From Candidatus Wildermuthbacteria bacterium (lineage in GTDB: Bacteria > Patescibacteriota > Minisyncoccia > Minisyncoccales > PEYH01): a stretch of DNA of 56,710 bases. Numbering within the stretch: position 1 is the stretch's first letter; each line of letters begins with the position of its first letter. A program made the translations under genes and the position numbers. The notes under the pieces are model-generated. The model was given only the letters and a program-made list of their open reading frames with translations, was not told the DNA's origin and did not search any database. Shown here piece after piece: positions 10,225 to 47,393 of the stretch. Where the stretch lies: NCBI GenBank assembly GCA_037445205.1, contig JBBIKX010000002.1:1-56710 (forward strand), read 5' to 3'.

Positions 10225-10857
10225 TCAGATCCATCTGCGGAACTTATACCAGGGTATAGCCACCAACAACTCCCGAAACCACCAGCGAACCGGACCCTTC
10301 GTCCACCATTGAGATGATTGCCGGTCGTAGGGTATGTCTTTGAGATCTTCCCCGCCCAGCGTTTGCACAGCGATTCTCAGCTTCGCCTCAAACAGAAGCT
10401 GTTCCAGCGCGCGCTTGACTCTCCAAAGATGGGCGCGATGGCAGACCAGAAGGACGCTGTTGAAGCGTCTTTCCGCCCTGTGCTCAAGACCCTTGATATG
10501 CTCGACAGCATGCCAAAGGAACCCTCGGGTGTCCAGATACTTTGGCGGCTTGGTTTCATGATCTCCAATCACCCTCATCTTTGCCTGGTCTATCGAAGGA
10601 TGACGCGCCCTGATGTCCAAGCCGATTTCATCCTGAACAACCAATCTGGCGCTTGGATGGAATTGAGTGAGCCAGCAAACCAGTTCAGCCATCGCCCGGT
10701 TACTTTTGCATACAGAATCATCGGGCAATGGAAAATCGCTCTCTCGCATTCCAAAGTCCAGCGCCAAGATCACGTCAATGGGCCCGGAATACTCCCGATT
10801 CGCTTTGTGTCTGTGGCGCCAAAGCCCCGACATCCTGCTGATCAGTCGCTTTAGCAA
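10225..10857 (-). CDS. GC-rich DUF218/YdcF-like protein (tentative)
   Basis: IDVILALDFG...YLDTRGF...VLLVCHRAHLWRVKRAL resembles the DUF218 pattern. TTG start is preceded by aaggaggtgatcc (13-nt extended SD). Composition is visibly GC-richer than the neighbours. Confidence 0.5.
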   Translation of the reverse strand: MLKRLISRMSGLWRHRHKANREYSGPIDVILALDFGMRESDFPLPDDSVCKSNRAMAELVCWLTQFHPSARLVVQDEIGLDIRARHPSIDQAKMRVIGDHETKPPKYLDTRGFLWHAVEHIKGLEHRAERRFNSVLLVCHRAHLWRVKRALEQLLFEAKLRIAVQTLGGEDLKDIPYDRQSSQWWTKGPVRWWFRELLVAIPWYKFRRWI

Positions 10858-10940
10858 CTCGGATCACCTCCTTGGATCGGATTTTGATTAAAAGATTATC
10901 ATTAAAAACGATTTCTGTCAAATTCATGCCCGGCGGGGAG

Positions 10941-11939
10941 TTATTGATTCAGTAAAATTTTTATCTCTTTCCAGAAAACATCGTTATTGTTTTTTTCTTT
11001 TTCCAGATACCACCACTCAACTCCCCAGAGATAAAACAAATCATTGCCGGTGTTTTTTGCAAATTCTATTATTTCTTTAAGGCGCGAAAGATTCATTGTT
11101 TTTTCCTGCTCCTCTTTTTCTAAATCATAGAGCAAAACCGGGCCCCATGGCTCTGCCTGAAGTTCGGAGCAAATCACCCTTTTTTTAAAGATTTTGTTTA
11201 CAAGCCAGGTTTTTCTTGCGTAAAATATCGGCGGAAAGGGATATGTTACGTATCTTTCCCATTTATCCATCCAAACTTTTCTGTAAAGCGTGTGGCCGAC
11301 AATGTCGCCCATCTTTGCGACATTAAACCACATAGGAATTTCTCCGCTTTCAGTAAGAACAACGGGGCGATTTCTGGGATCAAGAGATTTAACAAGCGCC
11401 ACCTCTCTTTTTAAAAGTTCTTTGTCGGGCGGCGGACATTCTCCAAAGGAAAAAAGCGGTTCGTTTTCAACCTGCCAAGCCCAAATTGAATTATTTTCTT
11501 TGTATCTTTTGACAATCGCCCCCATATAATCAAGCAGTTTTTCATTTTTGGCTTCTTGATCCCAATTCTTTAGCCACTCTGGCTCGTGACATTCGGGCCA
11601 CCTTGGCGCTTTCCTGCCAAACGCAAGCATTATTTTGGCGTTTCTTTTTTCTGCCTCTTCTATTTGCCAATCAAGATCATAAAAATCATAACGATCTTTG
11701 TTTTTTTCAATCAAATCCCAGTAAGCTATTAATCTTAATTCTTTCGCGCCCAAATCGTCTAAAATTGAAAGATATGCCTTTTGCCAGTCAAGACCAAAAA
11801 GCTCGGTATGTTTTTGGGAAAAGGTGATTCCCCATTTTATTTCTTTTGCCGGTTCTTTTTTGCCCACGAAAAAAAAGCAAAAAATAATCAAAAAAAGCGG
11901 AATAAAAAAGAGAAGGAAAATCTTTAAAAATTTTTTCAT
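10941..11939 (-). CDS. Glycoside hydrolase, clan GH-A TIM barrel (GH5-like), membrane-anchored or secreted
   Basis: N-terminal hydrophobic segment and WQVENEP (NEP acid/base motif). The precise GH family cannot be assigned by eye. Confidence 0.55.
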   Translation of the reverse strand: MKKFLKIFLLFFIPLFLIIFCFFFVGKKEPAKEIKWGITFSQKHTELFGLDWQKAYLSILDDLGAKELRLIAYWDLIEKNKDRYDFYDLDWQIEEAEKRNAKIMLAFGRKAPRWPECHEPEWLKNWDQEAKNEKLLDYMGAIVKRYKENNSIWAWQVENEPLFSFGECPPPDKELLKREVALVKSLDPRNRPVVLTESGEIPMWFNVAKMGDIVGHTLYRKVWMDKWERYVTYPFPPIFYARKTWLVNKIFKKRVICSELQAEPWGPVLLYDLEKEEQEKTMNLSRLKEIIEFAKNTGNDLFYLWGVEWWYLEKEKNNNDVFWKEIKILLNQ

Positions 11940-12892
11940 AAGCTCGGAGATTTTACGGCAAAAATCAGAAGGCCAAGCGATATTAAAATAGTGGCGCTGA
12001 TTTTTTTGAGCAAAATTCTTTTTGAAATTTTCTCTGACAAAATATGGGGGAATTTAAAAGAGAAAACGATCATAAAAGCCAGGAGAAACGCATATCTTAT
12101 TCCCTCAAGCGCGTTTACAAAAGAAAGAAGGGCAAGCGGCACAAAATACACGGAAAGATTCTGAAAAATCCCCGCCGCCCCGCCTATTAATTGACCCGCC
12201 AGAAACAAGGCGATGGTTTTTGGGGTTTTAATTGCGTCTTTTTTTCTGGAGAAAAAAAATTTTTCTCTTAATTCTTTTGAAAGAAAAAAAAGGAGGGACG
12301 CTAAAAATCCGCCCGATAATCTTAAAGCGAGTCCCGATAAAAAACTTGTTTCCAGATAAACAATTTTTGCCAAGAAAAATCCGTTCGCGAACAAAAACGC
12401 GGAAAAGGCAGACAAAATAAAAGTTCCCTTCGTTATTTTTTTCTCTTTCTCCAAATTAAGGCTTATAAGAACGCTTCCTAAAACCATCAGAACAAAAGAA
12501 ACAATCTGCCAGAAATTAAAAAATAGATTTTGATCAGAGTTTTCTTTTTCGGCGTAAAAAAATAATCCCAAAAGAAGCGTAAATAAGGGCAGAAGTCCGC
12601 CTATGGCAGGAATTATCGTTGAGGCGTCATATTTTTTAAGCGCCTGATAAAGAAAAAAAATGGCGAAAATCCATACGGCTCCCGAAAAAAGCCCAAGAAA
12701 AACAACAGGAATCGCCAGCGAAAAAAAATTGGAAAATGGAAGCAAAATCAGCGCGCCCAATCCTCCAAAAATTCCGGTCAAAAATGCGTAAACCATCGGC
12801 GTTTTTATCGGTCCGCTGAGGATTATTTTATCAATCAACGACACGGCTGCCAATAAAAAATATGAAAGAATGGCAAAAATTATCCAAAGCAT
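11936..12892 (-). CDS. DMT/EamA-like polytopic membrane transporter
   Basis: 318 aa with about 10 hydrophobic segments. Stop and start overlap both flanking glycosidase genes. Confidence 0.55.
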   Translation of the reverse strand: MLWIIFAILSYFLLAAVSLIDKIILSGPIKTPMVYAFLTGIFGGLGALILLPFSNFFSLAIPVVFLGLFSGAVWIFAIFFLYQALKKYDASTIIPAIGGLLPLFTLLLGLFFYAEKENSDQNLFFNFWQIVSFVLMVLGSVLISLNLEKEKKITKGTFILSAFSAFLFANGFFLAKIVYLETSFLSGLALRLSGGFLASLLFFLSKELREKFFFSRKKDAIKTPKTIALFLAGQLIGGAAGIFQNLSVYFVPLALLSFVNALEGIRYAFLLAFMIVFSFKFPHILSEKISKRILLKKISATILISLGLLIFAVKSPSL

Positions 12893-14056: not shown

Positions 14057-14244
14057 TAATTTATTATCCCAAAAATTCGTTTCTTTTTCCAGCTTGTGCC
14101 AAAAAAATAACAAATATGCAAAAAATAACCCTGCCTCTTGACAAGTTTTGGATAGTGGTATATATATAATACAGGCAGTTCTTTAAATTAAATGAGGTGT
14201 TTTGGTGGGGATTGACTGCAAGATCTTGTTAATAAACGAGGTTT

Positions 14245-14603
14245 AACAGGCAATCCCTACCGTACGGTTCTGTTGCCATTAGTGCGTGCTGACGAGTGCG
14301 CGCTATTCTGGCAATAGAAGCTTGGGGGTAACGTTCTTGCCTTCTCGCGGTCAGAGAAGGTTCTACGGAATAAGCCATCGGCCGAACTGCCGGTAGGCGA
14401 ATATGTTTCCTCCGCTGGAAGCAGCCGACGTTGTCCTCTTTGGGTTTTTTTGCCCAGAGAGACCGCAAAAAGTTCAGGGCGGAACCGGCATTCCAGCTTG
14501 CCGACTAGCCCCTTTGGGTAAAGTTGTAGGGACTTTGCCCAGAGCTTTTCTCTTGTTCTTTCTGGCACAGCAATGACGTTGTGCCATATCGCGGGATGTT
14601 GTT
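14245..14603 (-). ncRNA. rnpB: RNase P RNA (bacterial type A)
   Basis: The minus strand carries GGGCAAAGUCCCUAC (P4 5' strand, compare GGAAAGUCCGGGC), CGGCCGAUGGCU, AAUAGCGCGCAC (compare GUAAGAGCGCAC) and GGCAACAGAACCGUACGG (P4 3' strand, compare ACAGAACCCGGC) in the canonical order and spacing. A P3-like hairpin uggcaca...ugugcca is present. It forms a GC-rich island in AT-rich DNA. The ends are approximate. Confidence 0.7.
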
Positions 14604-14627
14604 ATCATACAATGTCCCTTTTTGCTT

Positions 14628-16139
14628 TTAATATTCCAAAAACCAGAATCTTTCTTTTCTTTTTTGATGATGAACAAACAAAGCAAGCAAAAGATAATAA
14701 ACAAGAACAACTGCCAAAGAAACCCTTGCGTTAATCGCAAAAAAGGGAATGGCGGCAATCAAATCGGAAATAAAAATAACATAGCCAAGAATAAAGGATA
14801 AGGGAATAAAAACCAAAAAACCCAAGGGCAAAAAAATCAATCCGGCAATTATTCCCAAAATTCCCATTGCCAAGACAAGAGGCATTGTGGGAACAATTAA
14901 GACATTGGCAACGGGAGACAAAAGCGACAAATAACCAAAATGATAGAATAAAACCGGCAGGGTAAAAATCTGGGCGGAGAAAGTCATTGAAAGAACGGAT
15001 CTGATTCCAAAATTTTTTGGAATTTTTTTGAGTTTTTTATTAAAAAACGGCGACAAATAATTTATTCCAAGAGCCGCCAAAAAAGAGAGCTGAAATCCGG
15101 CGTCAAAAAACAAAAACGGGTTAATCAAAAGGATAGCGGCGGCCGCAAACAAAAGAAACCTGATTGAATCGGGCATTCTTGAAAAAATCTGGGCCAAAAT
15201 AATCCCCGCTCCCATAATTGAAGCCCGAATTGCTGAAGCGGGAAAGCCGATCAAAAAAAGATAAAAAAGAATAAAGAGCATAACTGTCAATCCGGAAATT
15301 TTTCTTTTTATCCCAAGCCCTATAAAAATTGCCATTAAAACATTCATCAAAATTGCAATATGCATTCCGGAAATTGCCGTTATGTGGCGAGTTCCGCTTT
15401 TGTTGAAGCTTTCTTTCAAATAATCCGGCATTTCTTTTTTATCTCCTAAAACAATTGCCCCAAGAAGCGCGCTTTTTGGAAAGACAAGCCCTTCGTTTAT
15501 AATTTTTCTCAATTTTTCTTTTATTTTAAAAACCGCCCTGAAATAAATCGGCGCATCGGCTGTTTTTTCTATTTTTTCGGGATTTTTTATAACCGATAGT
15601 ATACCCTGTTTTTCAAGATAGTTTTTATAGTCAAATTCATCAAAATTTTTCGGGGATTCGGGTTTTCCTTTGACAATAATTTTTTCTCCAGCCATATATT
15701 CGGTTTTTTTATCCGCCAGAACCAAAACCTTTCCTGTCGTTTTAAAAAAAGGGGCTTGGGGGCTTTCCTTCAAGCCATGCTCAATAATTTCTTTTATTTC
15801 AACAACGAGTTTTTGATTTAGCGTTTTTTCTTCTGGCTCCTTGTCTATCTTTCCCGAAAAGACGACTTCCATATTTTTATCGTTAAAAAATAAAAGCTCG
15901 CTTTGTTTTAGGGAATAAAGCATGTAATTTGCCCTAATCGCCCCCAAAACCATAAAAACAAAAAAAAGAAATATTGCTTTTTCTTTTTTAAAAATAAAAA
16001 GCCCTGCTGCCATCAAAAAAACCGCAATGGTTAATTGCGGCCAATTTATAAATAATCCCATAGCTGTGCCCAAAACAAAAGAGAGCATTATCCACAAAAA
16101 AATGTTTGGGGCGTCCATCATTGTTCTCTTATTTGGCAA
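14628..16139 (-). CDS. comEC: ComEC/Rec2-family competence channel (OB/DUF4131 plus competence TM domain, no C-terminal metallo-beta-lactamase domain)
   Basis: 503 aa and polytopic, with the pattern GTRHITAISGMHIAIL typical of the ComEC competence domain. Confidence 0.8.
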   Translation of the reverse strand: MPNKRTMMDAPNIFLWIMLSFVLGTAMGLFINWPQLTIAVFLMAAGLFIFKKEKAIFLFFVFMVLGAIRANYMLYSLKQSELLFFNDKNMEVVFSGKIDKEPEEKTLNQKLVVEIKEIIEHGLKESPQAPFFKTTGKVLVLADKKTEYMAGEKIIVKGKPESPKNFDEFDYKNYLEKQGILSVIKNPEKIEKTADAPIYFRAVFKIKEKLRKIINEGLVFPKSALLGAIVLGDKKEMPDYLKESFNKSGTRHITAISGMHIAILMNVLMAIFIGLGIKRKISGLTVMLFILFYLFLIGFPASAIRASIMGAGIILAQIFSRMPDSIRFLLFAAAAILLINPFLFFDAGFQLSFLAALGINYLSPFFNKKLKKIPKNFGIRSVLSMTFSAQIFTLPVLFYHFGYLSLLSPVANVLIVPTMPLVLAMGILGIIAGLIFLPLGFLVFIPLSFILGYVIFISDLIAAIPFFAINARVSLAVVLVYYLLLALFVHHQKRKERFWFLEY

Positions 16140-33598: not shown

Positions 33599-33616
33599 TG
33601 CCTTGCTCTTCCCTTG

Positions 33617-33640
33617 GGGCGCAATGCGCCCTTTTTCTTT
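33617..33640 (+). terminator. Rho-independent terminator (gggcgc aat gcgccc, then tttttcttt)
   Basis: 6-bp GC stem followed by a T-run on the plus strand. Confidence 0.6.
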
Positions 33641-33647
33641 ATTATAA

Positions 33648-35498: not shown

Positions 35499-35519
35499 AA
35501 ATTAGATGTTATTATAAAT

Positions 35520-35774
35520 TCAGATTCCCTCAATTTCTTTTAATTTCCATTTTTGACCGCCGACAGAGAGAATTATCAATTCGGCATTCTGGGCGGGCGT
35601 ATTTTTGGCGAGCAACGAAAAATTATATTTAAGATTTTGGGGGGCAATTTTTTCTCCGTGCTCTATAAAATCGCCCAATTCTACTTTAAGATAATTAATT
35701 TTTTTAAAACCGCTTTTTTTGGCGGTTTCTAGGGCAATTTTTAGAATTTGATCGGCCAAATGCAGATCGTGCAT
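35520..35774 (-). CDS. hypA: HypA-like nickel metallochaperone fragment (N-terminal MHD Ni-site domain only, no zinc CxxC domain)
   Basis: MHDLHLADQILKIALETAKKSGFKKINYLKVELGDF parallels HypA MHE...L.IG.F. The 84-aa protein has no Cys at all. Confidence 0.55.
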   Translation of the reverse strand: MHDLHLADQILKIALETAKKSGFKKINYLKVELGDFIEHGEKIAPQNLKYNFSLLAKNTPAQNAELIILSVGGQKWKLKEIEGI

Positions 35775-35801
35775 ACAATAAAATTATAAATTCTAATATC
35801 T

Positions 35802-35896
35802 AAATCCCAAACAAATTCAAAATTATTTAATTCTATTTTTTTCTTTTTGCGTTTTACATTGTAATTTTGCATTTTGAGATTTGCATTTTGCGTTTT
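35802..35896. repeat. Intergenic composite of the heptamer-mosaic repeat family (A-rich arm 35802-35824, T-rich arm 35847-35896)
   Basis: aaatcccaaacaaattcaaaatt is the exact reverse complement of leuS 40126-40148. The T-rich arm, ttgcgttttacattgtaattttgcattttgagatttgcattttgcgtttt, resembles the ileS inserts. Confidence 0.85.
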
Positions 35897-37925: not shown

Positions 37926-37943
37926 AGAAAGAGAGGGGGAGAA

Positions 37944-38630
37944 TTATCGCTCTCCCCGGGCGTTTTCGTGTTTGATGGCGTCAAGGGTGTATTGTTTAAG
38001 AATTTCTCTCTGATGGGGGCTTATCGCCTGACAGATTATGCCGCGATGAATAGTTACAATATCTCCGAAGGATACAACCGGGCCTATCCTAATCTCGCGC
38101 GGCATAACTTCTGTTCTTGGACAAATCTTCAACGCAAGCCGCCCGTTCCTATAGACAATCTCGCAAAGATTGTCTATGCGGACTGATTCATCGTCAATTC
38201 GGGAAACTTCTGCCCAGCGCACGATACAGCGGTTGATGGCGAGAAGAGTTTCTGTTTGCTTTGACAGCTTATGTCTTGATAGAAGAACCTGATGGTTGTG
38301 GTGTGGCGAACCATTGGGCTTATTGTCTCTCCTTGGGAAGGATTTATCGGTGAGATCATTGCCGACAAAATATGCCTCAACCACATCTTGGGATAGAGGA
38401 TCTTTCTTGGCGTTATCTCCGATTAAACGGAGAAAGTGGCCGGCGTTGGGCAATGCAAGAATTACCTTTCGCGCAAGAATTGCCCTTTTCTTGCCGGAAC
38501 AAGCCAGGAAATTCTCTACTTCCAAAACACCGCCAGCCTGCACAGCACAGGCGCCATCCCTTAAGGGCCCCAGAACATAACGTCCGGCAAGCGCAAGTCC
38601 CCGCATATCTCCTCCTTTTTGCGCCGTCAT
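37944..38630 (-). CDS. GC-rich hypothetical protein embedded in the hydrogenase operon; C-terminal third is weakly HypC/HupF-like
   Basis: 228-aa ORF whose ATG overlaps the hypC stop (ATGA). An alternative start at 38606 follows aaaggaggag. The region RCIVRWAEV...GDIVTIHRGIICQAISPHQREILKQY parallels HypC MCLAIPYKV...DFVLVQNNAIIKKLTKKEAKETL. Similarity was judged by eye only. Confidence 0.6.
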   Translation of the reverse strand: MTAQKGGDMRGLALAGRYVLGPLRDGACAVQAGGVLEVENFLACSGKKRAILARKVILALPNAGHFLRLIGDNAKKDPLSQDVVEAYFVGNDLTDKSFPRRDNKPNGSPHHNHQVLLSRHKLSKQTETLLAINRCIVRWAEVSRIDDESVRIDNLCEIVYRNGRLALKICPRTEVMPREIRIGPVVSFGDIVTIHRGIICQAISPHQREILKQYTLDAIKHENARGER

Positions 38631-38830
38631 TTTCTTAAAAAGAGCTTTAATGTTTCTTTGGCTTCCTTTTTGGTAAGCTTTTTTATTATAGCATTATTCT
38701 GAACCAGCACAAAATCTTTGGGATTTACCTCAATTAAGCTGTTTTGAGCGGTTCTTTTCTCGCCCAACATATCAAGCTCTATTTTCCCGTCTTTTGTGCT
38801 AATTACTTTATAGGGTATGGCAAGGCACAT
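38627..38830 (-). CDS. hypC: Hydrogenase maturation chaperone HypC
   Basis: MCLAIP N-terminus, 67 aa, starting 4 nt after the leuS stop. Confidence 0.85.
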   Translation of the reverse strand: MCLAIPYKVISTKDGKIELDMLGEKRTAQNSLIEVNPKDFVLVQNNAIIKKLTKKEAKETLKLFLRK

Positions 38831-38833
38831 TTT

Positions 38834-41569
38834 TTAAACGACGAAATTGATTACTTTGTCTTTGACAAAGATTGTCTTTTTGATTTCTTTTTTATTGAGC
38901 CATTTTTGGATCTTGGGCGATTTTAAGACGATTTTTTGGGCTTCATTTTCGGAAATTCCAGCCGATGTCTCAATTTGATCCCGCACCCTTCCATTAACTT
39001 GCGCTACTAAAACCACCTTTTCATCTTCTATCAGCTCCTGATCATATTCCGGCCAACTTTCTTTAAAAATTGACTTGATTTGTTTGGGATTTGGAATTTG
39101 TGATTTGGGATTTGTTTGGAATTTGGAATTTATGATTTGGGATTTGCCGAGGAGTTGATGCAACTCCTCGGATATGTGCGGCGCGAATGGCGCCAATAGC
39201 CTAACTAACAACTCGCAATCTACAACCGATAACTCCTTTTCTTTCTCCATTTCGTTGACAAGCTCCATTATCGCGGCAATGGCAGTGTTGAATTTTTGCG
39301 CCTCAATATCTTGGGTAACCTTTTTAATTGTCTTATGAATTAATTTTTTAATTTTTTGATTTTGGATTTTTGATTTTTGATTTGTCTGGAATTTAAGATT
39401 TAGGATTGCGGATTTTTCAAAAAGTCGCCAAATTTTTTGAAGAAACCTCTGCGCTCCCAAAATCCCCTGCGAATCCCATGCAATCGGCTGATCAAAAGGC
39501 CCCATAAACATTTCATAAATTCTGAATGTATCAGCCCCGTATTTTTCAATAATTTCATCCGGGTTAATTACATTGCCCCGTGATTTGGACATTTTCTGGC
39601 CATCGGGCGCCAAAATAAGCCCGATTGTTTTTAATTTAGAAAACGGCTCTTTAAAGTTGATTATTTTGGAGTCGTATAAAGCTTTTATCCAAAAGCGGGC
39701 GTATAAAAGATGCAAAACCGCATGTTCTGCTCCCCCCACATAAAAATCCACCGGCAACCAGTATTTCAATAATTTCGAACCACCGCCCTTTTTCAAAAGG
39801 ACGGGGCCCAGCTCATCTGTAGATGGGCTGTGGTTTTGGATTTTAGATTTTGGATTTGAGCTTACGCAGTAGGCGATGAAGTACCAGCAAGATCCGGCCC
39901 ATTGAGGCATCGTGTTTGTCTCCCTTATCGCTTTGCCGTTGCATTTCGGGCATTTTGTTTCCTTCCAATCTTTAACTGCGGACAGCGGCGACTCACCCGT
40001 GCCTGTTGGCTGATATTTCTCAACTCTTGGAAGTTCAAGGGGCAGCTCTTTTTCCGGCAATGCCACCCATCCGGGATTTAACAATTCTCCTAGGTGAAAC
40101 TCTAAATTTTGAATTTTGAATTTTGAATTTTGAATTTGTTTGGGATTTGTAATTTGTAATTTGTAATTTTTTACTGTTTTTTCGCAATTTCCGCAAAAAA
40201 CAAGCGGGATCGGCTCTCCCCAATATCTTTGACGGGAAAAAATCCAATCGCGCAGCTTATAATTCACTGCTTCTTTAGCCAGATTTTTTTCGGCCAACCA
40301 TCTCGTTATTTCTTTTTTTGCTTTTTCGCTTTTTATCCCGTCAAAATTTCCTGATTTCATGAGAATTCCCTCTCCCTCATAAGCCCCATTATTTTTTTTT
40401 GAATTTTGGATTTGGAATTTAGACGGCCTTATAACTTCAATGATTTCTATGTTATATTTTTTAGCAAACTCATAATCTCTTTTATCGTGCGCCGGCACTC
40501 CCATAATGGCGCCGTACCCATAAGATAGCAAAACATAATCAGCGATATATATAGGGATTTTTTTCTGATTCGCCGGATTTATGGCTTTTATTCCTTCTAT
40601 TTCAACCCCTGTCTTGTCTTTTATTCCAGCAATCCTTTTTCTTTCTGTTTTCTTTTTTGCCTTTTTAAGATATTCTTTAACCTCCTCTATATTTTGGATT
40701 TTGGATTTTGGATTTTTGAAGAGCGAGGCAACGAATTCGTGTTCCGGAGCCAAAACTAAAAAAGTTGCGCCAAAAATCGTTTCCGGTCTTGTGGTGAACG
40801 ATTTGATGAATTCTTTTGAATTTTCAATTTGAGATTTGTAATTTATTTTGGCTTTGGAATTTATAATTTGAAATTTTATTATTGCTCCTTCTGATCTCCC
40901 TATCCAATTCCTTTGCATTTCTTTAATCTGTTCCGGCCAGTCCAATTTATCCAATCCCTGTAACAATTTCTCTGCATAATCGGTAATTCTTAAGACCCAT
41001 TGTTCAATTTTCTTTTTAACGACTGCCGCTTGGCACCTCTCGCATTTGCCGTCAATCACTTCCTCATTTGCCAGCCCGGTTTTGCAGGAAGGGCACCAGT
41101 TAATCGGCAGATTTGCCCGATAAGCCAGACCTCTTTCAAATAATTTGAGAAAAATCCATTGCGTCCATTTATAATATTCTGGGTCAGCAGTGGAAATCTC
41201 CCGCGACCAGTCATAGGAAAGCCCGATTCTTTTCATCTGCTCTTTGAATCTCTTAATGTTTTGCTTTGTGGTAATTTCGGGATGAATGCCTGTTTTTATG
41301 GCATAATTTTCTGCGGGCAGGCCAAAAGCATCCCAGCCCATGGGATGTAAAACATTATATCCTCTCATTCGCATATAATGGGCAATGACATCTGTTCCGA
41401 TATATCCTCGCGGGTGACCCACATGAAGTCCGGCGCCCGAAGGATAAGGAAACATATCTAAAATGTAAAGTTTTGGCTTTTCGGAATTGTCTTTTGCCTC
41501 AAAAATTCTTTCCTTTTCCCAAAGTTTTTGCCATTTTAACTCTATGTTTCCAGGGTCGTAACTCTTCAT
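38834..41569 (-). CDS. leuS: Leucyl-tRNA synthetase carrying seven in-frame low-complexity inserts
   Basis: HIGH-type GLHVGHPRGY, QKMSKSRGN and editing-domain and Zn-module motifs; 911 aa. Confidence 0.95.
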   Translation of the reverse strand: MKSYDPGNIELKWQKLWEKERIFEAKDNSEKPKLYILDMFPYPSGAGLHVGHPRGYIGTDVIAHYMRMRGYNVLHPMGWDAFGLPAENYAIKTGIHPEITTKQNIKRFKEQMKRIGLSYDWSREISTADPEYYKWTQWIFLKLFERGLAYRANLPINWCPSCKTGLANEEVIDGKCERCQAAVVKKKIEQWVLRITDYAEKLLQGLDKLDWPEQIKEMQRNWIGRSEGAIIKFQIINSKAKINYKSQIENSKEFIKSFTTRPETIFGATFLVLAPEHEFVASLFKNPKSKIQNIEEVKEYLKKAKKKTERKRIAGIKDKTGVEIEGIKAINPANQKKIPIYIADYVLLSYGYGAIMGVPAHDKRDYEFAKKYNIEIIEVIRPSKFQIQNSKKNNGAYEGEGILMKSGNFDGIKSEKAKKEITRWLAEKNLAKEAVNYKLRDWIFSRQRYWGEPIPLVFCGNCEKTVKNYKLQITNPKQIQNSKFKIQNLEFHLGELLNPGWVALPEKELPLELPRVEKYQPTGTGESPLSAVKDWKETKCPKCNGKAIRETNTMPQWAGSCWYFIAYCVSSNPKSKIQNHSPSTDELGPVLLKKGGGSKLLKYWLPVDFYVGGAEHAVLHLLYARFWIKALYDSKIINFKEPFSKLKTIGLILAPDGQKMSKSRGNVINPDEIIEKYGADTFRIYEMFMGPFDQPIAWDSQGILGAQRFLQKIWRLFEKSAILNLKFQTNQKSKIQNQKIKKLIHKTIKKVTQDIEAQKFNTAIAAIMELVNEMEKEKELSVVDCELLVRLLAPFAPHISEELHQLLGKSQIINSKFQTNPKSQIPNPKQIKSIFKESWPEYDQELIEDEKVVLVAQVNGRVRDQIETSAGISENEAQKIVLKSPKIQKWLNKKEIKKTIFVKDKVINFVV
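39074..39142 (-). repeat. Heptamer repeat insert 7 in leuS (encodes SQIINSKFQTNPKSQIPNPKQIK)
   Basis: Plus strand reads cttgatttgtttgggatttggaatttgtgatttgggatttgtttggaatttggaatttatgatttggg. Confidence 0.9.
39347..39400 (-). repeat. Heptamer repeat insert 6 in leuS (encodes NLKFQTNQKSKIQNQKIK)
   Basis: Plus strand reads ttttttgattttggatttttgatttttgatttgtctggaatttaagatt. Confidence 0.85.
39833..39859 (-). repeat. Heptamer repeat insert 5 in leuS (encodes SNPKSKIQN)
   Basis: Plus strand reads gttttggattttagattttggatttga. Confidence 0.85.
40103..40174 (-). repeat. Heptamer repeat insert 4 in leuS (encodes VKNYKLQITNPKQIQNSKFKIQNL)
   Basis: Plus strand reads (aattttg)x4, atttgtttgggattt, then (gtaattt)x3. 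It contains the 23-mer shared with 35802-35824. Confidence 0.9.
40394..40423 (-). repeat. Heptamer repeat insert 3 in leuS (encodes SKFQIQNSKK)
   Basis: Plus strand reads tttttttgaattttggatttggaatttaga. Confidence 0.85.
40691..40717 (-). repeat. Heptamer repeat insert 2 in leuS ((AAAATCC)n, encodes KNPKSKIQN)
   Basis: Plus strand reads attttgg attttgg attttgg attttt. Confidence 0.9.
40814..40873 (-). repeat. Heptamer-mosaic repeat insert 1 in leuS (encodes FQIINSKAKINYKSQIENSK)
   Basis: Plus strand reads ttgaattttcaatttgagatttgtaatttattttggctttggaatttataatttgaaa, made of NNATTTN 7-mers. Confidence 0.8.
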
Positions 41570-41619
41570 ATTTTTTATTTTAATTCATAACCGGCCCTCT
41601 TTCAATCCAAAAATAAGAA

Positions 41620-41638
41620 GGCCAAGACTGGCTTGGCC
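41620..41638 (-). terminator. Rho-independent terminator after the prs-like gene (ggccaag/cttggcc stem, then a T-run on the minus strand)
   Basis: 7-bp stem followed on the minus strand by ttcttattttt. Confidence 0.55.
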
Positions 41639-41660
41639 CTCAACATCCTCCTTGAACGGA

Positions 41661-42632
41661 TCATTCCTCAAACAGCTGGCTTACTGATCCGCCCTCTATG
41701 GATATTTCGCGTATGGCGTCTGCCAAAAGCGGGGCGATAGAAACTATGGTCAAAGGAAGCATTTTTTTTGCTTTCCCGGACTGGGGAACGGTGTCTGTGA
41801 TGACGATCTCTTGAATGAGGGGACAAGAAAGGTTTTTGATGGTTTCATCGCCGCAAAGAGCGTGAGTGGCAAAAACGATGATCTCTCTGGCCCCCATCTC
41901 TGTTAGCTTCTCAACCACGGCTTTAATAGTCGTTCCTTTGACGATCTTGTCGTCCCAAAGAAGAACTCTCCTGCCCTTCACCTCGCCGTACACATGACGA
42001 ACAATCACCTCATCTCCGCTTACGCGCTCCTTTTCCACCGGAACCACCGGAATTCCCGCTTTTTCTGCGATCTTTCTTGCAATCTTTCCAAAACCCAGAT
42101 CTCCGGGGACCATAACAGCGTCTTGGAAATATCCCCTCTTGACAGCATATTCGACCATAAGCGGAACTACCTTAAGGTGATCTTTGATCGTGCTCAGGGG
42201 AAAAAAAGCGGGAAATTGAGGCGAGTGAAGCTGGACTCCGATAAACCGCCTCATACCTGCCTGATGCAGAATAGCGGCCACCAGTTCGCCGGCAATAGGC
42301 ATTCTGCCCGCCCATTTCTTGTCTGACTGATCCCAGCCAAGATGAGGCACAACCAGATTTACCTCTTCTGCTGAGGCATTATACGCAGCGTTCACCAAAA
42401 ACGCCGCCTCTAGAAGATGGTAACAGGCGCTCCGTATGCTGGGAAGAAAGGTTTGAATAATAAAAACCCTCTTCCTGCGCATATTCGGAGGCAATACTAC
42501 CTCAAAGTCGCCGGTTCCGTACCGAAAGATTCTGGGCAAAAAGCACTCTCTGCCCAGTAATCTTGCCACCTTGCTTGCAAGCCCGAAGTGAGAAGTTCCG
42601 GAAATCACCACTACTTTTTCCATTTCCATCAC
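41661..42632 (-). CDS. prs: Ribose-phosphate pyrophosphokinase (PRPP synthetase) family protein, divergent and GC-richer
   Basis: Overall PRPP-synthase layout with the PRPP loop LLWDDKIVKGTTIKAVVEKL. The usual YARQDRK region reads GWDQSDKK. AAGGAG lies upstream, so the true start is probably an ATG at 42629 or 42623. Confidence 0.75.
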   Translation of the reverse strand: MMEMEKVVVISGTSHFGLASKVARLLGRECFLPRIFRYGTGDFEVVLPPNMRRKRVFIIQTFLPSIRSACYHLLEAAFLVNAAYNASAEEVNLVVPHLGWDQSDKKWAGRMPIAGELVAAILHQAGMRRFIGVQLHSPQFPAFFPLSTIKDHLKVVPLMVEYAVKRGYFQDAVMVPGDLGFGKIARKIAEKAGIPVVPVEKERVSGDEVIVRHVYGEVKGRRVLLWDDKIVKGTTIKAVVEKLTEMGAREIIVFATHALCGDETIKNLSCPLIQEIVITDTVPQSGKAKKMLPLTIVSIAPLLADAIREISIEGGSVSQLFEE

Positions 42633-42663
42633 TCCTTTTGTAAAGTTGCTTATATAGACTACA

Positions 42664-43512
42664 TTATAGGCCTTTATTTGTCAAAAAAAGATTTTGAGCG
42701 TTATGTGTTGCTGCCGCGACGAGGTTTTTAACGCTAATTTTTTTGATTTTGGCGATTTTTTGGGATATAAGTTTCACTCCTAAGGGATCATTTCTTTTTT
42801 TGTATCCGGGAACAGAAAGATAGGGGCAGTCGGTTTCCAAGAGAATTTTTTCCAAGGGAGTTTTTTTAATGATTTTATCTAAATCAAGCTTGAAAATTAT
42901 TCCGTTGAATCCAAGATGTAGCCCCATTTCTAAATATTTTTTTGCCTGCTCTAAGTTCCCGGTAAAACAATGCACTGCTCCTTTTATTTTTCCGCTTTTT
43001 ACTTTCCGCTTTTTGCTTAAAATCTCTATAAGTTCTTGATGTGCCATTCTGCAATGAAAAATAACCGGGAGGTTCAATTCGCCGGCTAATTTCAATTGCT
43101 CAAGCAGAGTTTCTTTTTGTCTCTTTTTGAATTCCTCTAATTTATTTTTTGTTTTTGGTTTCCAATAATAATCCAGACCGGTTTCGCCGATAGCCACTAC
43201 TTTTTCTGATTTCGCCAAATCTTTGTATTTTTCATAATCAAAAAAGTTTTCTTTTTGAGAATTTTTGCCTGTTTCTTCATCATCGTTTTTTATCTTTATC
43301 AACCCTGTTTCCAAATGAATCGGATGAAGCCCGATTGCCGCCCAAATTCCTTCTTTATAATCTTTGGCAATCTCTACCGCTTTTCTTGAAGTGGAAAAAT
43401 TACTGCCCACATTTATCATCCAGACTTTTTGCTTAAGGCAATTTTTAATTACCCAGTTTCTGTCTTTATCAAAGGCACGAAAATTAAGATGAGCGTGGGT
43501 GTCAATTAACAT
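42664..43512 (-). CDS. tatD: TatD-family metal-dependent hydrolase
   Basis: LIDTHAHL start and the later IGETGLDY, HCR and ETDCPYL motifs. Confidence 0.9.
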   Translation of the reverse strand: MLIDTHAHLNFRAFDKDRNWVIKNCLKQKVWMINVGSNFSTSRKAVEIAKDYKEGIWAAIGLHPIHLETGLIKIKNDDEETGKNSQKENFFDYEKYKDLAKSEKVVAIGETGLDYYWKPKTKNKLEEFKKRQKETLLEQLKLAGELNLPVIFHCRMAHQELIEILSKKRKVKSGKIKGAVHCFTGNLEQAKKYLEMGLHLGFNGIIFKLDLDKIIKKTPLEKILLETDCPYLSVPGYKKRNDPLGVKLISQKIAKIKKISVKNLVAAATHNAQNLFLTNKGL

Positions 43513-43528
43513 AAAATTTGAAGCAAAT

Positions 43529-43545
43529 CAGAGGCCCAACCTCTG
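43529..43545. repeat. REP-like hairpin, copy 1 (cagagg cccaa cctctg), downstream flank of the RAYT gene
   Basis: 6-bp stem and 5-nt loop, in inverse orientation relative to copies 2 and 3. Confidence 0.8.
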
Positions 43546-43549
43546 TTTT

Positions 43550-44299
43550 TTATTCCAGGGCAAGTTTGGCAAATTTTTTAATCTCACCTTTATATTTCAC
43601 CCAATTCTCAATAAAATCCCTGCAACCCTGTTCGTCGCCCATTATTTTAAGCAAAAATTTTCTCTCAGTCAGCGAGGGAAAATTCTTTTTGCCAAGATAG
43701 TCAAAATAGCTGGACCATCTATATTCTTCTTCTAAAAATTTAATTACTCTGTTTGGATTATTAATTCCAAACTCTTTCCATTTCGGTTCTGTGAAAGAAA
43801 TCGGATTAGCATGAATATACACAAAAACAGTTTTTAACTGCTCGTCGGTTTTAATATGGACGGCAGTAAATCTTCTGAGAAGAAGAGGGCCCTGGCGCCC
43901 ATATTTCCTATTGAAATATCCTCCGTAGCCAGTGTTAAGCTTTATCATAAACCTGATAATCCCCCTATCTTTAATTTGACGCAGAAGCAAATGAAAATGG
44001 TTTGGCATAATACAAAAAGCTAAGATCTCTACCAATTTATCCCTTAAATCAACAGAGGTTGGGCCTCTGTTGACTTCTTTTAGAAAATCCTGTTCTGCTT
44101 TTTTAATTTGGGTTTTTATTTTACTCCGCTCTTTCCGCCGCTCTCTAATTACCACTGGATTAGCATTGTTGAATTCATAGATGGAAAAAATCGCCCGATA
44201 ATTATCATCAGTGTCTTTAAAAAGCAAATTATCATCAATCCCCTTTATAACAATATGATAAATCTCATTATTAACAAATTGTTCTTTTCTATAAGGCAT
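43550..44299 (-). CDS. IS200/Y1-type (REP-associated tyrosine transposase, RAYT-like) transposase
   Basis: HUH motif MPNHFHLLL and catalytic Tyr context VYIHANPI; flanked by REP-like hairpins. Confidence 0.8.
   Translation of the reverse strand: MPYRKEQFVNNEIYHIVIKGIDDNLLFKDTDDNYRAIFSIYEFNNANPVVIRERRKERSKIKTQIKKAEQDFLKEVNRGPTSVDLRDKLVEILAFCIMPNHFHLLLRQIKDRGIIRFMIKLNTGYGGYFNRKYGRQGPLLLRRFTAVHIKTDEQLKTVFVYIHANPISFTEPKWKEFGINNPNRVIKFLEEEYRWSSYFDYLGKKNFPSLTERKFLLKIMGDEQGCRDFIENWVKYKGEIKKFAKLALE
44053..44069. repeat. REP-like hairpin, copy 2 (cagaggttgggcctctg), inside the RAYT coding sequence (encodes NRGPTSV)
   Basis: The 17-mer is identical to copy 3. Confidence 0.8.
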
Positions 44300-44338
44300 A
44301 AGTATAAAGCATAATTTATATCTACAGAGGTAGCTTTA

Positions 44339-44355
44339 CAGAGGTTGGGCCTCTG
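44339..44355. repeat. REP-like hairpin, copy 3 (cagaggttgggcctctg), upstream flank of the RAYT gene; a partial copy acagaggta lies at 44324-44332
   Basis: The 17-mer is identical to copy 2 and is the reverse complement of copy 1. Confidence 0.8.
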
Positions 44356-44392
44356 TAAAATTAGCGAGATAAATATAGTTTATCATTTATGT

Positions 44393-44437
44393 ATAAAAAA
44401 GGAAGAGCCTTCGGGCAAAAAATTGCACCGAAGGCTC
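44393..44437 (-). terminator. Rho-independent terminator of the GC-rich 264-aa gene (gagccttcgg/ccgaaggctc 10-bp stem, then ttccttttttat on the minus strand)
   Basis: Perfect 10-bp stem with a T-run downstream in the minus orientation. Confidence 0.65.
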
Positions 44438-44504
44438 AAGGTGTTTAAGAGGATCAAGTCCTCAAGCGTTCAAGGCTCAGATCTGCCCCGTAGTGAGCTT
44501 CGCT

Positions 44505-45299
44505 CTACTGCGGGGACTTCCGAGCCGAGGCCACGCCGATGCGGAGATAGCGGCAATTATCCCAACAGCCGAAGACGCTCAGACCGCTCGAACCGAAGTA
44601 ACCGACGTCGACCCGGCTGCCGCCCGAATTGACAGAGGACGTGCGGACGTAGATGTTCTCGAAGAGCCGCTCCCCGGTTGCGAGGAAATGACCGATGATC
44701 GTGTAGACCATCACTTGGGCAGTCGGCGTTTCCTCGTTTTGGGCGAGAAGAGCGAGAAGAGCCTGCTGTTCATCCCAGGTCTTGGAGGTCGAGTTGTCGA
44801 CCGACGTCTTGCGGACAAACTGCCAGCGCACCTCTCCGCGGTTCTTGGCGAACGCATCTTTGTTGTACCAAGCGTCCTCGTGGCTGTAGAAGAGCTTGCG
44901 CTCGGCTTTGTCACGAATCTCAAGAATCGAGAGGGGGAACGCGGCAACAAGCACGTGCGTATCCTTCACTTTCCAGAGTTCTGATTCCGTGAACGGAATC
45001 TCAGCCAGTGCCGAGATTTGCGCTCGCGTCGGCTGAACCCTGAAGTGCTGGATCGCTTCTTCGACGCCAAAGTAGTTCTTGCCCATGATCTCGCGGGCAA
45101 GCTTCTGCGTCGTAGTCGGCTCGTAGCCGCCTGAGTTCCAGAAGCGCACCAGGTGCTTCCTCATTTCGGGATCGTCAATGGGGACTTGCAGGGCTTCCTC
45201 GATGGGAAGACCGGCCTGCCGCATCACACGAACCCACGTTGCCAGTTGACCAAGCTGCTTTTCTAACGCCACGTCCTGGTTCGCAATGGAGTTTACCAT
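44505..45299 (-). CDS. GC-rich hypothetical protein (264 aa from MVNSIANQ)
   Basis: Strong GC3 bias in this frame and AGGAGG 6 nt upstream of the ATG at 45299. It has its own promoter, leader and terminator. No family recognised. Confidence 0.7.
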   Translation of the reverse strand: MVNSIANQDVALEKQLGQLATWVRVMRQAGLPIEEALQVPIDDPEMRKHLVRFWNSGGYEPTTTQKLAREIMGKNYFGVEEAIQHFRVQPTRAQISALAEIPFTESELWKVKDTHVLVAAFPLSILEIRDKAERKLFYSHEDAWYNKDAFAKNRGEVRWQFVRKTSVDNSTSKTWDEQQALLALLAQNEETPTAQVMVYTIIGHFLATGERLFENIYVRTSSVNSGGSRVDVGYFGSSGLSVFGCWDNCRYLRIGVASARKSPQ

Positions 45300-45373
45300 T
45301 GCACACCTCCTGTAGTTCATCCCGCCATCAGCGGAACACGCGCCTGTTGGTCAACAGACAGAACTTGTCTCCC

Positions 45374-45434
45374 TATGAGACGAGCCCGTTGAAGACCCAC
45401 CGTGAGAAAGGACATTCAATGGGCTCGTCTCATA
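45374..45434 (-). promoter_or_regulatory. Perfect 14-bp stem (tatgagacgagccc/gggctcgtctcata) with a 33-nt loop in the 5' leader of the GC-rich gene
   Basis: The arms are exact reverse complements. The stem lies between the predicted promoter and the SD site. Confidence 0.6.
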
Positions 45435-45463
45435 CATATAAAAGAGCTCTTAAAGACTCTTGT

Positions 45464-45492
45464 ATGATAACATATTCTATTTCTTCTGTCAA
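45464..45492 (-). promoter_or_regulatory. Sigma70-like promoter (TTGACA, 17-nt spacer, TATCAT) overlapping the metG stop
   Basis: The minus strand reads ttgaca gaagaaatagaatatgt tatcat. Confidence 0.5.
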
Positions 45493-46943
45493 ATCCGAGG
45501 GAAAAGAGGACCGGTTTTTTTTGTTTTGAGTTGTTGGAGAATTTTTTCTGAGGTTTGGGGCAAAAACGGTTCAAGCAGTATGGCAATTTCTTTGATCGCT
45601 AACAATAAATTATTGATTGTTTTTTTCTGCTTGCCGGATTCTTCCCAGGGCCGCTCTTTTTCAATGTATTTATCGCAGAAAGCAATCAACTCCCAAATTG
45701 TAGTTAGTGCTTCATTGAACTTAAATTCCTCTATGACCTCTTTATAGTTCTTCCAAGTTTTATTTATTATTGTTTTGAGTTTTGAATTTTGGATTTGTTT
45801 AGGATTTAGGATTTGAGATTTGAGATTTAACTTGACGGCCACTGTAATTACCCTTGAAACAAGATTTCCCAAACCAGCCGCTAAATCGGCATTATATCTC
45901 TTCTTAAATTTATCGCAAGAAAAATCCAAATCGTCAAAAGGAGAGGCCTCTCTCAAAAGGAAATATCTGACCGCATCAACTCCGTATCTTGCGGCAAGAT
46001 CTTCGGGAGACACCACATTGCCCAAGGACTTAGACATTTTCTGGCCATTGGCCGTCACATAACCATGCACAAATAATTTATCCGGCAAAGAAATCCCAGC
46101 AGAAAGCAGGGCGGCCGGCCAATACAAAGAATGAAAAATCAAAATGCCTTTTCCAATGATATGCGTTTTATTCTGGTTTTCCTGCCACCAATCTTTGAAC
46201 CTTTTTTCATCTTCGCCATAGCCCAAAGCGCTGATATAATTGATTACCGCATCCCACCAGCACCAAAAAATCTGACCTTCATCACCGGGCACAGGAATAC
46301 CCCAATTTTTTGCTCGTCCTGAAGAGCGGGAAATACAGATATCTTCTAGCCCTTTGTTGATGAATCCCAAAACTTCATTTTTGCGCGATTGGGGGATAAT
46401 TTTTAAAACATCGCTTTCTATTAATTTTTTAAGCTTTTTTTCGTATTTAGAAAGCTTAAAAAAATAATTTTCCTCTTCAACCAGCTCCGGCGCGATTTTG
46501 TGCTCTGGGCAAAGCTTATCAGTCAATTCTTCTTCTTTATAAAATTGTTCGCACCCGACGCAATAAAGCCCTCTGTATTTTTTCTTATAAACGTCTTTTT
46601 TGCATCTCTCCCAAAGATTATAAACCGATTTAATATGCCTTTTTTCAGTAGTTCTAATAAAATCATCAAAAGAAAGGTTAAGAATTTCTTTTAATTTTAA
46701 AAAAGCGTCCGCGTTTTTTTTAGAGAATTTATCGGGTGAGATTCCCGCCTCTTCTGCCGCCCGCGCAATTTTTAAACCGTTTTCGTCTGTGCCGGTAAGA
46801 AAAAAAACCTCTTTTCCCAGCGCGCGATAATGGCGCGCCAAAACATCCGCCTGAATAAGTTCAAGGGCAAATCCGATATGAGGCAAGGAGTTAACATACG
46901 GCAGGGCGGTAGAAAAATAATATTTTTGATTATCTTTTGGCAT
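45489..46943 (-). CDS. metG: Methionyl-tRNA synthetase (short form) with one in-frame repeat insert
   Basis: LPHIGF (HIGH-like), QKMSKSLGN and the CVGCEQ...CPEH knuckle. Confidence 0.95.
   Translation of the reverse strand: MPKDNQKYYFSTALPYVNSLPHIGFALELIQADVLARHYRALGKEVFFLTGTDENGLKIARAAEEAGISPDKFSKKNADAFLKLKEILNLSFDDFIRTTEKRHIKSVYNLWERCKKDVYKKKYRGLYCVGCEQFYKEEELTDKLCPEHKIAPELVEEENYFFKLSKYEKKLKKLIESDVLKIIPQSRKNEVLGFINKGLEDICISRSSGRAKNWGIPVPGDEGQIFWCWWDAVINYISALGYGEDEKRFKDWWQENQNKTHIIGKGILIFHSLYWPAALLSAGISLPDKLFVHGYVTANGQKMSKSLGNVVSPEDLAARYGVDAVRYFLLREASPFDDLDFSCDKFKKRYNADLAAGLGNLVSRVITVAVKLNLKSQILNPKQIQNSKLKTIINKTWKNYKEVIEEFKFNEALTTIWELIAFCDKYIEKERPWEESGKQKKTINNLLLAIKEIAILLEPFLPQTSEKILQQLKTKKTGPLFPRI
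45774..45833 (-). repeat. Heptamer-mosaic repeat insert in metG (encodes KLNLKSQILNPKQIQNSKLK)
   Basis: Plus strand reads ttgagttttgaattttggatttgtttaggatttaggatttgagatttgagatttaac. It shares the NPKQIQNSK-coding module with leuS insert 4. Confidence 0.9.
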
Positions 46944-47000
46944 AATCTTTAAAAATGATTGGTTTTTTTATTGTATCATAATGTTAATTTGGCAAAAATT

Positions 47001-47036
47001 AAATAAAAACAAGAGGCCCGACAGAGTGGTCGGGCC
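47001..47036 (-). terminator. Rho-independent terminator (ggcccgac/gtcgggcc stem, then ctcttgtttttattt on the minus strand)
   Basis: 8-bp GC stem about 20 nt after the stop of the 77-aa ORF. Confidence 0.65.
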
Positions 47037-47056
47037 AAGAACAGTTGGGCAAGCGT

Positions 47057-47290
47057 TCATGGCTTTTTCTTGGGTTCTCTCAGGCCGATGACACACAAAA
47101 AGCAACCAGCGGCCAGAAGAGAGAATGTTGTCAACATCTCGGCTTTTCCGCCCGGTTTTATCCCCCACACATAGGGCAGACAAAACCAAACGAACCAGAC
47201 CGCTGCGAAAAGAGCCACGAATATGCCCACGGCCAAAGAGGATTCCTTGATTTTCCGAAACACCCGAGACCTGCGGACTGCCTGCCTCAT
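47057..47290 (-). CDS. GC-rich small two-TM membrane protein (77 aa)
   Basis: AAGGAGGA lies 4 nt upstream of the ATG. Two hydrophobic helices (LAVGIFVALFAAVWFVWFCL, MLTTFSLLAAGCFLCVIGL). Preferred over the out-of-frame 117-aa ORF 46968..47321, which lacks an SD site. Confidence 0.55.
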   Translation of the reverse strand: MRQAVRRSRVFRKIKESSLAVGIFVALFAAVWFVWFCLPYVWGIKPGGKAEMLTTFSLLAAGCFLCVIGLREPKKKP

Positions 47291-47393
47291 CGCATCCTCC
47301 TTCTTTTCCCAAGATTAGCACGTTCTGTGCCCGGGAAAGAACTGTTTTTATATTTAATTAATATTATTAAAAAGTCAAGTTAGTAGAGATTGA

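Follow-up and report, generated by a model that had tools for sequence, protein, structure and literature searches.

Selective Shine–Dalgarno use, coupled to a persistent GC excess, in a patescibacterial lineage poor in Shine–Dalgarno sites

The stretch of DNA analysed here, called the window, comprises 56.7 kb of contig JBBIKX010000002.1 of a Candidatus Wildermuthbacteria bacterium and has a GC content of 0.396 (39.6%). Its gene set is typical of Patescibacteria, or candidate phyla radiation (CPR), and includes clpB, htrA, comEC, nrdDG, ftsAZ, an archaeal-type GlmU, glyA and glmS, as well as a group-3-like NiFe hydrogenase with hypC and several aminoacyl-tRNA synthetases. Six open reading frames (ORFs), numbered here as islands 1 to 6, stand out by their GC content and by a strong Shine–Dalgarno (SD) site before the start codon. 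An earlier note on the same sequence had proposed that single genes were repeatedly acquired from a GC-rich, SD-using donor or, alternatively, that they form a distinct class with special translational control. The six GC-rich loci with strong SD sites were confirmed (GC 0.49–0.58; duplex energies of −8.2 to −12.7 kcal/mol), and they are best summed up as a case in which an SD-poor lineage uses SD selectively, together with a GC excess that persists.

Our comparisons draw on fetched CPR loci (L001–L041) and on two sequencing runs with Logan assemblies: X1, whose label reads subsurface metagenome and which contains the window sequence, and X3, a related strain. Among the named relatives found, the closest is a metagenome-assembled genome of Minisyncoccia (Paceibacteria), and exact look-ups of the window's own proteins found no record. 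SD strength is given as duplex energy (dG) with the anti-SD core 5′-ACCUCCUUA-3′, the reference not being this organism's own 16S 3′ end; Rfam scans found no 16S gene in the window. The island starts are as follows:

Island 1, start 10857 (TTG): dG −12.7 kcal/mol
Island 2, start 33149 (GTG): dG −12.5 kcal/mol
Island 3, start 38606 (ATG): dG −11.6 kcal/mol
Island 4, start 42623 (ATG): dG −8.2 kcal/mol
Island 5, start 45299 (ATG): dG −11.6 kcal/mol
Island 6, start 47290 (ATG): dG −11.7 kcal/mol

In about 48 native genes, the first start gives values from +2.7 to −5.3 kcal/mol, mostly near zero, and native leaders (−20 to −1) contain 45–55% A and 9% G. Strong SD sites are present in 6/6 islands versus 0/48 native genes (Fisher probability about 4e-8); the claim that native genes lack such sites therefore stands, and SD motifs are not equally common on them. 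The SD consensus of the islands is AAGGAGGUG, up to 13 nt long. When both strands were scanned, no further ORF flanked by intergenic DNA had a strong SD at its 5′ start, and the remaining matches were internal. Among the starts proposed earlier, 45299 holds, inside a longest ORF that begins at 45320, while those at 38630 and 42632 are probably better placed at 38606 and 42623, respectively.

The island ORFs have a GC of 0.49–0.58 versus about 0.38 in native genes, with all three codon positions raised (pooled native GC1/GC2/GC3 = 0.45/0.33/0.38). Their proteins contain more G, A, R and P and fewer F, Y, M, I, N and K (GARP share 0.285 versus 0.211). Several islands were also said to have promoters and terminators of their own, and a scan of 14.6 kb (32900–47500) agrees: islands 5 and 2 rank first for promoter matches, and islands 6, 4, 2 and 3 for terminator matches. 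Composition atypical at all three codon positions, the amino-acid shift and the canonical expression signals would all be expected after recent, repeated uptake from a GC-rich, SD-using donor outside the CPR, such as the host, with imported genes not yet ameliorated. Once relatives are considered, we regard such an import as very improbable.

The coupling of SD and GC extends beyond the window. Among 495 ORFs in 41 CPR loci, 1–3% of those at or below local GC have a strong SD, compared with about 15% at +0.02 to +0.06 GC and 27–41% above that. Internal start-like codons, used as a control, gave 0–3%, and the trend persists when the query family is excluded. SD scarcity is seen in the window and in another 35 CPR loci. 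Of 40 native genes from GC-rich CPR loci, only 1 is SD-positive, so that no SD-using CPR donor is visible.

Island 5 has the most informative family, sampled in 33 fetched genome loci and two more obtained through exact look-up. Its locus is organised as follows:

44505–45299, minus strand: island 5 ORF, 264 aa, GC 0.58, GC3 0.74; SD AGGAGGT at 45311–45305; equivalent of the variable repeat at about 44505–44640
45323–45436, minus strand: conserved structured 5′ leader; basal stem ATGAGACGAGCC...GGCTCGTCTCAT at 45433–45375
45464–45492, minus strand: promoter TTGACA-17-TATCAT with TG, 11/12 matches
44395–44504, minus strand: conserved sequence after the stop codon, similar to the post-stop sequence of L001, followed by a terminator
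43529–44355, minus strand: region of a RAYT-like Y1 transposase, gene at 43550–44299 (NCBIfam and Pfam)

More than 900 homologs were found, at 56–84% identity among the best 120, and all the named ones are Patescibacteria. In 18 homolog loci, the last ~120 nt of the gene (variable repeat, VR) are repeated ~480 nt downstream (template repeat, TR), with mismatches almost exclusively at adenines of the downstream copy (17/17, 15/15 and 20/22 in three loci). In about 15 loci, an Avd gene and a reverse transcriptase (RT) gene come next; RT is missing from about half of the loci. A 3′ repeat with adenine-specific mismatches, together with Avd and RT, is the signature of a diversity-generating retroelement (DGR). 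The protein alignment displays a hypervariable C-terminus interleaved with invariant residues, and the window protein is 53–84% identical to bona fide DGR targets. We regard island 5 as a homolog of the Patescibacteria DGR variable protein, with its own diversification being putative. The protein has no recognisable domain and no match in a profile search against PDB sequences. A DGR target would be expected to present its VR on a C-type lectin or Ig-like fold. A first AlphaFold2 model was poor (predicted local distance difference test, pLDDT, 57); a second reached 81.5, with the last 17 residues below 50, and a Foldseek search of it against PDB gave no match with E < 3. Two arrangements in other genomes concern the same family: L010 holds two tandem DGR-target paralogs (4992–5765 and 7296–8069), and in some genomes each tandem paralog has its own leader hairpin; L020 carries two VR-like copies beside one TR (gene 5001–5654, repeats 6597–6717 and 7125–7244).

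Within the window's 56 kb we found no TR copy (repeat search) and no RT or Avd (tblastn and Pfam). Directly downstream of island 5, at the place of TR-avd-RT in other genomes, lies the RAYT element, the sole mobility gene of the window, with palindromes resembling repetitive extragenic palindromic (REP) sequences (CAGAGG-N5-CCTCTG) at 43529, 44053 and 44339, three found where 0.07 were expected. The RAYT element may have displaced the DGR core in the window.

The island 5 family gene is GC-richer than its 6-kb flanks in 33/34 genomes, by up to 23 points, across flanks of 0.28–0.55 GC. Its GC partly tracks that of the host (r = 0.51, slope 0.37). Within the same DGR cassette, RT and Avd lie at or below locus GC and have no SD, whereas the target lies +0.1 to +0.2 GC above it and has one. 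About 25/33 loci keep the SD AGGAGGTaTGCc-ATG (AGGAGGT-5 nt-ATG) at fixed spacing, while other genes of at least 100 aa in these loci almost never have an SD. An excess found in nearly every genome is difficult to reconcile with host import and is a maintained property of the family gene.

Upstream of the gene, TTGACA...TATAAT-like sites occupy the matching relative place in other loci of the family. RNAalifold predicts 22 pairs in the leader, 13 with compensatory changes, in addition to G–U transitions on the sense strand. Overall, 95% of alignment cells are paired versus 78% in shuffles, none of 500 shuffles being as high, and about 42% in slid controls. The hairpin takes the form ATGAGACGAGCG...CGCTCGTCTCAT with a variable inner hairpin (e.g., L009:4828–4927 and L013:4747–4849). 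A covariance model (R1) has one match in the window and precedes the family gene in at least 27 loci; no Rfam 15 family matched the leader.

The examined island 5 homologs are non-syntenic, following RNase Y in L001, AlaRS in L002 and MetRS in the window. It is thus worth considering that the islands are accessory genes circulating among Patescibacteria, by transfer and recombination or on CPR mobile elements, as self-contained expression units whose composition and SD reflect a shared pool and not the resident genome. The changing contexts, the loci without RT and the RAYT/REP element abutting island 5 are consistent with such circulation, as is the presence of a promoter and/or terminator of its own at every island. 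A Pfam domain is missing from most of the SD-led genes in relatives, which also fits accessory genes. On the other side, the GC of RT and Avd in the same cassette resembles that of the host, and the family gene exceeds every sampled host in GC, including hosts of 0.52–0.55, so that no sampled host could be the source of its composition. Circulation within the CPR seems to us possible but doubtful as a general explanation. It overlaps partly with the resident gene set that we favour below, and it has support for some islands.

Island 1 offers a syntenic comparison:

10225–10857, minus strand: island 1 ORF, 210-aa lineage-restricted protein, function not assigned, TTG start, GC 0.54, GC3 0.62
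10858–10921, minus strand: promoter, leader and SD; TTGACA 10921–10916, GATAAT 10900–10895, 13-nt SD AAGGAGGTGATCC at 10873–10861
10171–10220, minus strand: terminator hairpin and T-run, read from sequence, kept in L036 and L037

Only four homologs (59–73% identity) exist among 5.8e9 proteins. Two of the four come from L036 and L037, contigs that are syntenic with the window and share the order of a 318-aa gene, a GH-like gene of 332 aa, island 1, DAGK, htrA and clpB. The orthologs have a GC of 0.54 (L036) and 0.53 (L037) inside contigs of 0.41 GC. Across ~75 nt, promoter, leader, SD and TTG start are ~100% identical between the window, L036 and L037, despite only 67–73% identity of the proteins. 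Syntenic orthologs share these traits where native genes are near saturation at 4-fold sites (identity of 0.30–0.46 to L036), which is hard to explain by a recent import. At such sites, island 1 reaches 0.81 and its two neighbours 0.73–0.76; this raised identity points to a local recombination tract over the block of GH-like gene, island 1 and DAGK (window 9774–11939 versus L036:1061–3223). Recombination of this kind would suit genes exchanged within the CPR, but the neighbours in the tract remain AT-rich, and islands 1 and 4 are both syntenic in relatives, which would suit them less.

Island 1 is also present in X3, at 6–16% nucleotide divergence versus ~2–3% in its flanks, and evolves fast. 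The X1 Logan assembly breaks up inside it, at 10323–10448, and the two observations together point to microdiversity. Adjoining the island 1 ortholog, L037 holds a gene of 485 aa (5335–6792, minus strand) with a GC of 0.52, SD AAGGAGGTG and no Pfam domain; it has no window counterpart. By these features it is a further member of the GC-rich, SD-led class, and an additional gene of this kind in one relative is compatible with circulation within the CPR.

Islands 3 and 4 are as follows:

37944–38606, minus strand: island 3, DUF6390 protein, 220 aa (Pfam E 2e-16); SD GGAGG at 38615–38611; terminator 37936–37957
41661–42623, minus strand: island 4, ribose-phosphate pyrophosphokinase (phosphoribosyl pyrophosphate, PRPP, synthetase), 320 aa (Pfam); terminator 41617–41641

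The island 4 SD, AAGGAG, is located 8 nt upstream of the ATG at 42623. Its nearest homologs form a small clade at 54–82% identity, one of them named Parcubacteria; the next tier reaches at most 46%, and named non-CPR PRPP synthetases at most 38%. Island 4 thus belongs to a CPR-specific clade. Loci L038–L040 share its neighbourhood of ProRS, M16, AI-2E, methylase, MetRS, PRPP synthetase and LeuS. In these genomes of 31–35% GC, AAGGAGGTG (dG −12 to −13.4 kcal/mol) precedes the PRPP synthetase, DUF6390, an aminotransferase IV and a 60–71-aa ORF; the DUF6390 homologs with this SD are those of L039–L041. MetRS, the M16 peptidase, AI-2E, LeuS and an amidohydrolase have none, the last of them even standing between SD-led genes. 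The GC excess of the SD-led genes is only 0.02–0.10 there, and 0.02–0.07 for the PRPP synthetase and DUF6390 genes. The SD is thus a gene-specific conserved trait, separable from strong GC enrichment.

Island 3 is flanked by hypC (38627–38830) and by the delta and alpha genes of the NiFe hydrogenase. It is 26% identical to the DUF6390 copy of L040, and a metagenome scan found no close relatives. In L039 (6001–10127) and L040 (6001–10117), PRPP synthetase, amidohydrolase, DUF6390 and aminotransferase IV form one cluster, whereas in the window leuS and hypC separate PRPP synthetase from DUF6390, and the latter sits in the hydrogenase operon.

Repeated acquisition from a GC-rich, SD-using donor is not borne out by these comparisons, since the closest homologues of islands 1, 4 and 5 are found in the same lineage, within Patescibacteria, with the same composition. 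The syntenic absence in relatives that foreign islands would display was not found either: island 1 is present in L036, L037 and X3, and island 4 in L038–L040 and X3. Import is further disfavoured by the features of the window, among which neither integrase genes (about 50 of the 57 called ORFs were compared with Pfam or NCBIfam models) nor flanking direct repeats nor tRNA-linked sites were found. Taken together, import from the host is contradicted for islands 1, 4 and 5, and weakened for island 3.

Islands 2 and 6 are small and have a sparser record:

33089–33640, plus strand: island 2, with promoter 33089–33117, SD AAGGGGG 33137–33143 and terminator 33616–33640
33149–33598, plus strand: island 2 ORF, 149 aa, GTG start
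47057–47290, minus strand: island 6, 77-aa predicted membrane protein; SD GAAGGAGGA at 47303–47295; terminator 47015–47036
47346–47379, minus strand: promoter block upstream of island 6, 34 nt, 91% identity to relatives

The island 2 protein has a single match (97% identical) among 1.84e9 representatives and no relatives in a metagenome scan, and we treat it as an ORFan. The GC of its codon positions (0.54/0.51/0.53) has no periodicity. Its RNA folds no better than shuffles (z = −0.25) and matched no Rfam family. For island 6, blastn of the DNA against the fetched loci, with large protein databases not searched, matched the promoter block alone. This block (CTTGACTTTTTAATAAT.TT.ATTAAAT.TAAAA) also occurs at L039:5681–5714, L040:4783–4816 and L041:695–728, where it precedes an unrelated SD-led 60-aa Zn-ribbon ORF. 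A foreign origin is possible for islands 2 and 6, and the missing relatives of island 2 are compatible with import from a host.

As the window derives from a metagenome, an artefact of assembly or binning, in which a CPR contig would have received GC-rich pieces from other organisms, has to be considered, and the fragmentation of X1 within island 1 could be read in that sense. Yet island 1 is reached out of native DNA, on either side, by X1 contigs of 9.0 and 9.5 kb (depths 11 and 11.9x), another X1 contig covering 45037–47398 spans both junctions of island 6 as well as the left one of island 5, and an X3 contig spans both junctions of island 4. Depths at the junctions are roughly 10–14x in X1 and 28x in X3. 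X1 contigs are absent on 40200–44888; since the X1 index holds 93% of the words for 44000–46000, we take this gap as a filtering effect. The junctions covered (islands 1, 4 and 6, and one side of island 5) are thus supported by independent contigs, as a check against chimeric assembly would have them, and matching arrangements recur in the independent assemblies L036–L041. We give the artefact next to no credence.

Three GC-richer patches of the window (1–1769, 14190–14630 and 29024–29361) contain no SD-led ORF, so GC excess alone is no predictor of SD. The gene at 1–1769, a secreted peptidoglycan-binding protein, is GC-richer and has an A-rich leader without SD. The patch at 29024–29361 (GC 0.50) is intergenic, follows a Ca/Na antiporter gene and contains several G+C-rich hairpins without an Rfam match in whole-window scans. 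The second patch, on the minus strand between comEC and a GH1 gene, includes a GC-rich insert of 280 bp (14273–14552). It is missing from the X3 strain, whose contig joins 14272 to 14553, and from the syntenic L037, whose spacer is 54 nt. The insert RNA folds better than shuffles (z = −3.9). Neither an Rfam match nor an SD-led ORF was found in it, and it may represent a small element, mobile or of structured RNA. RNase P RNA, considered for 14190–14630, is unsupported by Rfam. On the whole window (gathering thresholds, and E up to 1), Rfam returned a tRNA-Leu alone, the sole recognisable RNA gene, at 27821, and at E up to 10 there was no further match on 14120–14660, 33060–33660 or 45290–45500. 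Given this result and the z-score of island 2, structured RNA does not explain the islands. Elsewhere in the window, a class I tRNA synthetase (53881–56652, minus strand; Pfam tRNA-synt_1, a model common to I/L/M/V enzymes, with Anticodon_1 and DUF5915) holds a complete His_Phos_1 histidine-phosphatase domain inside it (residues 223–392, E 4e-31).

Known mobile systems give little help. A repeat search found no repeats, inverted or direct, shared between or around the islands, and an integron, cassette or miniature inverted-repeat transposable element origin was set aside because no repeats are common to them. The island 5 family has no relatives among IMG/VR viral contigs, which speaks against a phage origin, and PADLOC matched neither five of the islands nor the extra L037 gene as defence systems. 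All three negatives also count against circulation within the CPR. Like integron cassettes, the islands are single-ORF units; unlike them, they have no shared attC-like repeats or integrase that we could find, carry promoters of their own and lie dispersed between housekeeping genes. They resemble classical genomic islands in their locally anomalous composition, in being single genes equipped with a promoter and a terminator, and in encoding many hypothetical proteins. They differ in that the anomaly is toward higher GC and conserved across many hosts, and in that their relatives lie within the lineage.

We consider it probable, with due reserve, that the islands are a mixed set of lineage-resident genes sharing a minority, SD-dependent mode of initiation, the two small ORFs (islands 2 and 6) being of unplaced origin. 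By default, most genes here and in relatives would start translation without SD, from A-rich, G-poor leaders. The island genes would instead recruit the 30S subunit through long canonical SD pairing with a canonical 16S 3′ tail, as the SD consensus of 9–13 nt suggests. Through SD dependence, their mRNAs may be translated at a level, or under a condition, of their own, and a strong SD may also help initiation on GC-rich, more structured mRNAs. The distinct class with special translational control that the earlier note offered as its alternative fits these data: relatives retain the SD gene by gene, which implies that it is under selection, and the control itself is our inference.

Several points weigh against this account. 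The relatives were retrieved through island proteins, and the SD and GC statistics are not an unbiased genome-wide sample. Published work found the CCTCCT anti-SD motif in just 48% of 16S genes from Parcubacteria (PMC9297842). The MetRS–LeuS region varies in gene content among relatives, so some of its genes could be accessory and exchanged among CPR lineages, as circulation within the CPR would have it. Finally, islands 2 and 6 are without informative relatives.

The raised GC is a persistent property of these genes and families and not a leftover of recent import. Several causes were weighed. Codon-usage selection for GC3 is unlikely, as G3 and C3 both rise and GC1 and GC2 do so too. Mutagenesis by the DGR, which is A-specific, is unlikely to account for whole-gene GC because T3 is depleted as well as A3. 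Biased gene conversion offers no simple fit, for the neighbours in the island 1 tract are not GC-enriched, and import from a GC-rich CPR does not fit a gene that exceeds every sampled host. The idea that SD merely compensates for GC-rich mRNA is weakened by orthologs in genomes of 31–35% GC, where the SD is perfect although GC is hardly raised. Of the causes weighed, selection on mRNA stability or structure is left as a possibility.

The nearest parallel that we know in the literature is found in Bacteroidetes, where almost all genes are without SD and the anti-SD is sequestered, while rpsU (bS21) and rpsR (bS18) keep a strong regulatory SD (Jha et al. 2021, PMC7797042). As there, SD-less, A-rich leaders here coexist with a very small conserved gene set with strong SD. 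In contrast, none of the six islands encodes a ribosomal protein; they are accessory or lineage-specific and GC-rich. We conjecture, as a speculation that we hold rather unlikely, that each cell of this patescibacterial clade has two initiation regimes: an SD-independent default and a small conserved SD-dependent regulon of GC-rich accessory genes, gated by anti-SD availability. This regulon would include the DGR protein, with the conserved leader on its mRNA. Such gating could act, for example, through ribosome composition or state, resembling bS21 control in Bacteroidetes, and would serve interaction or adaptation genes.

A clade of cellular DGRs (clade 2) is restricted to CPR, and its targets are without recognisable domains (Roux et al. 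2021, PMC8144416). Island 5 homologs resemble them in having a 3′ VR, a downstream TR followed by avd and RT, and no recognisable protein domain; the window copy differs in having RAYT/REP there and no TR, avd or RT in 56 kb. We found no mention of GC content or SD in that study. Our data add three features to this CPR DGR target family: a GC that constantly exceeds that of the host and of the accompanying RT and Avd, a fixed SD, and a leader hairpin that covaries and lies outside Rfam 15.

GC-rich islands in AT-rich genomes are routinely taken as horizontal transfer and, for episymbionts, as gifts of the host. For the cases that could be tested here, this reading appears to be wrong, which calls for caution with composition-based calls of horizontal transfer in CPR genomes. 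What emerges is a small gene set whose translation probably differs from that of its neighbours, and this bears on how CPR ribosomes, some of them reported without anti-SD, start translation.

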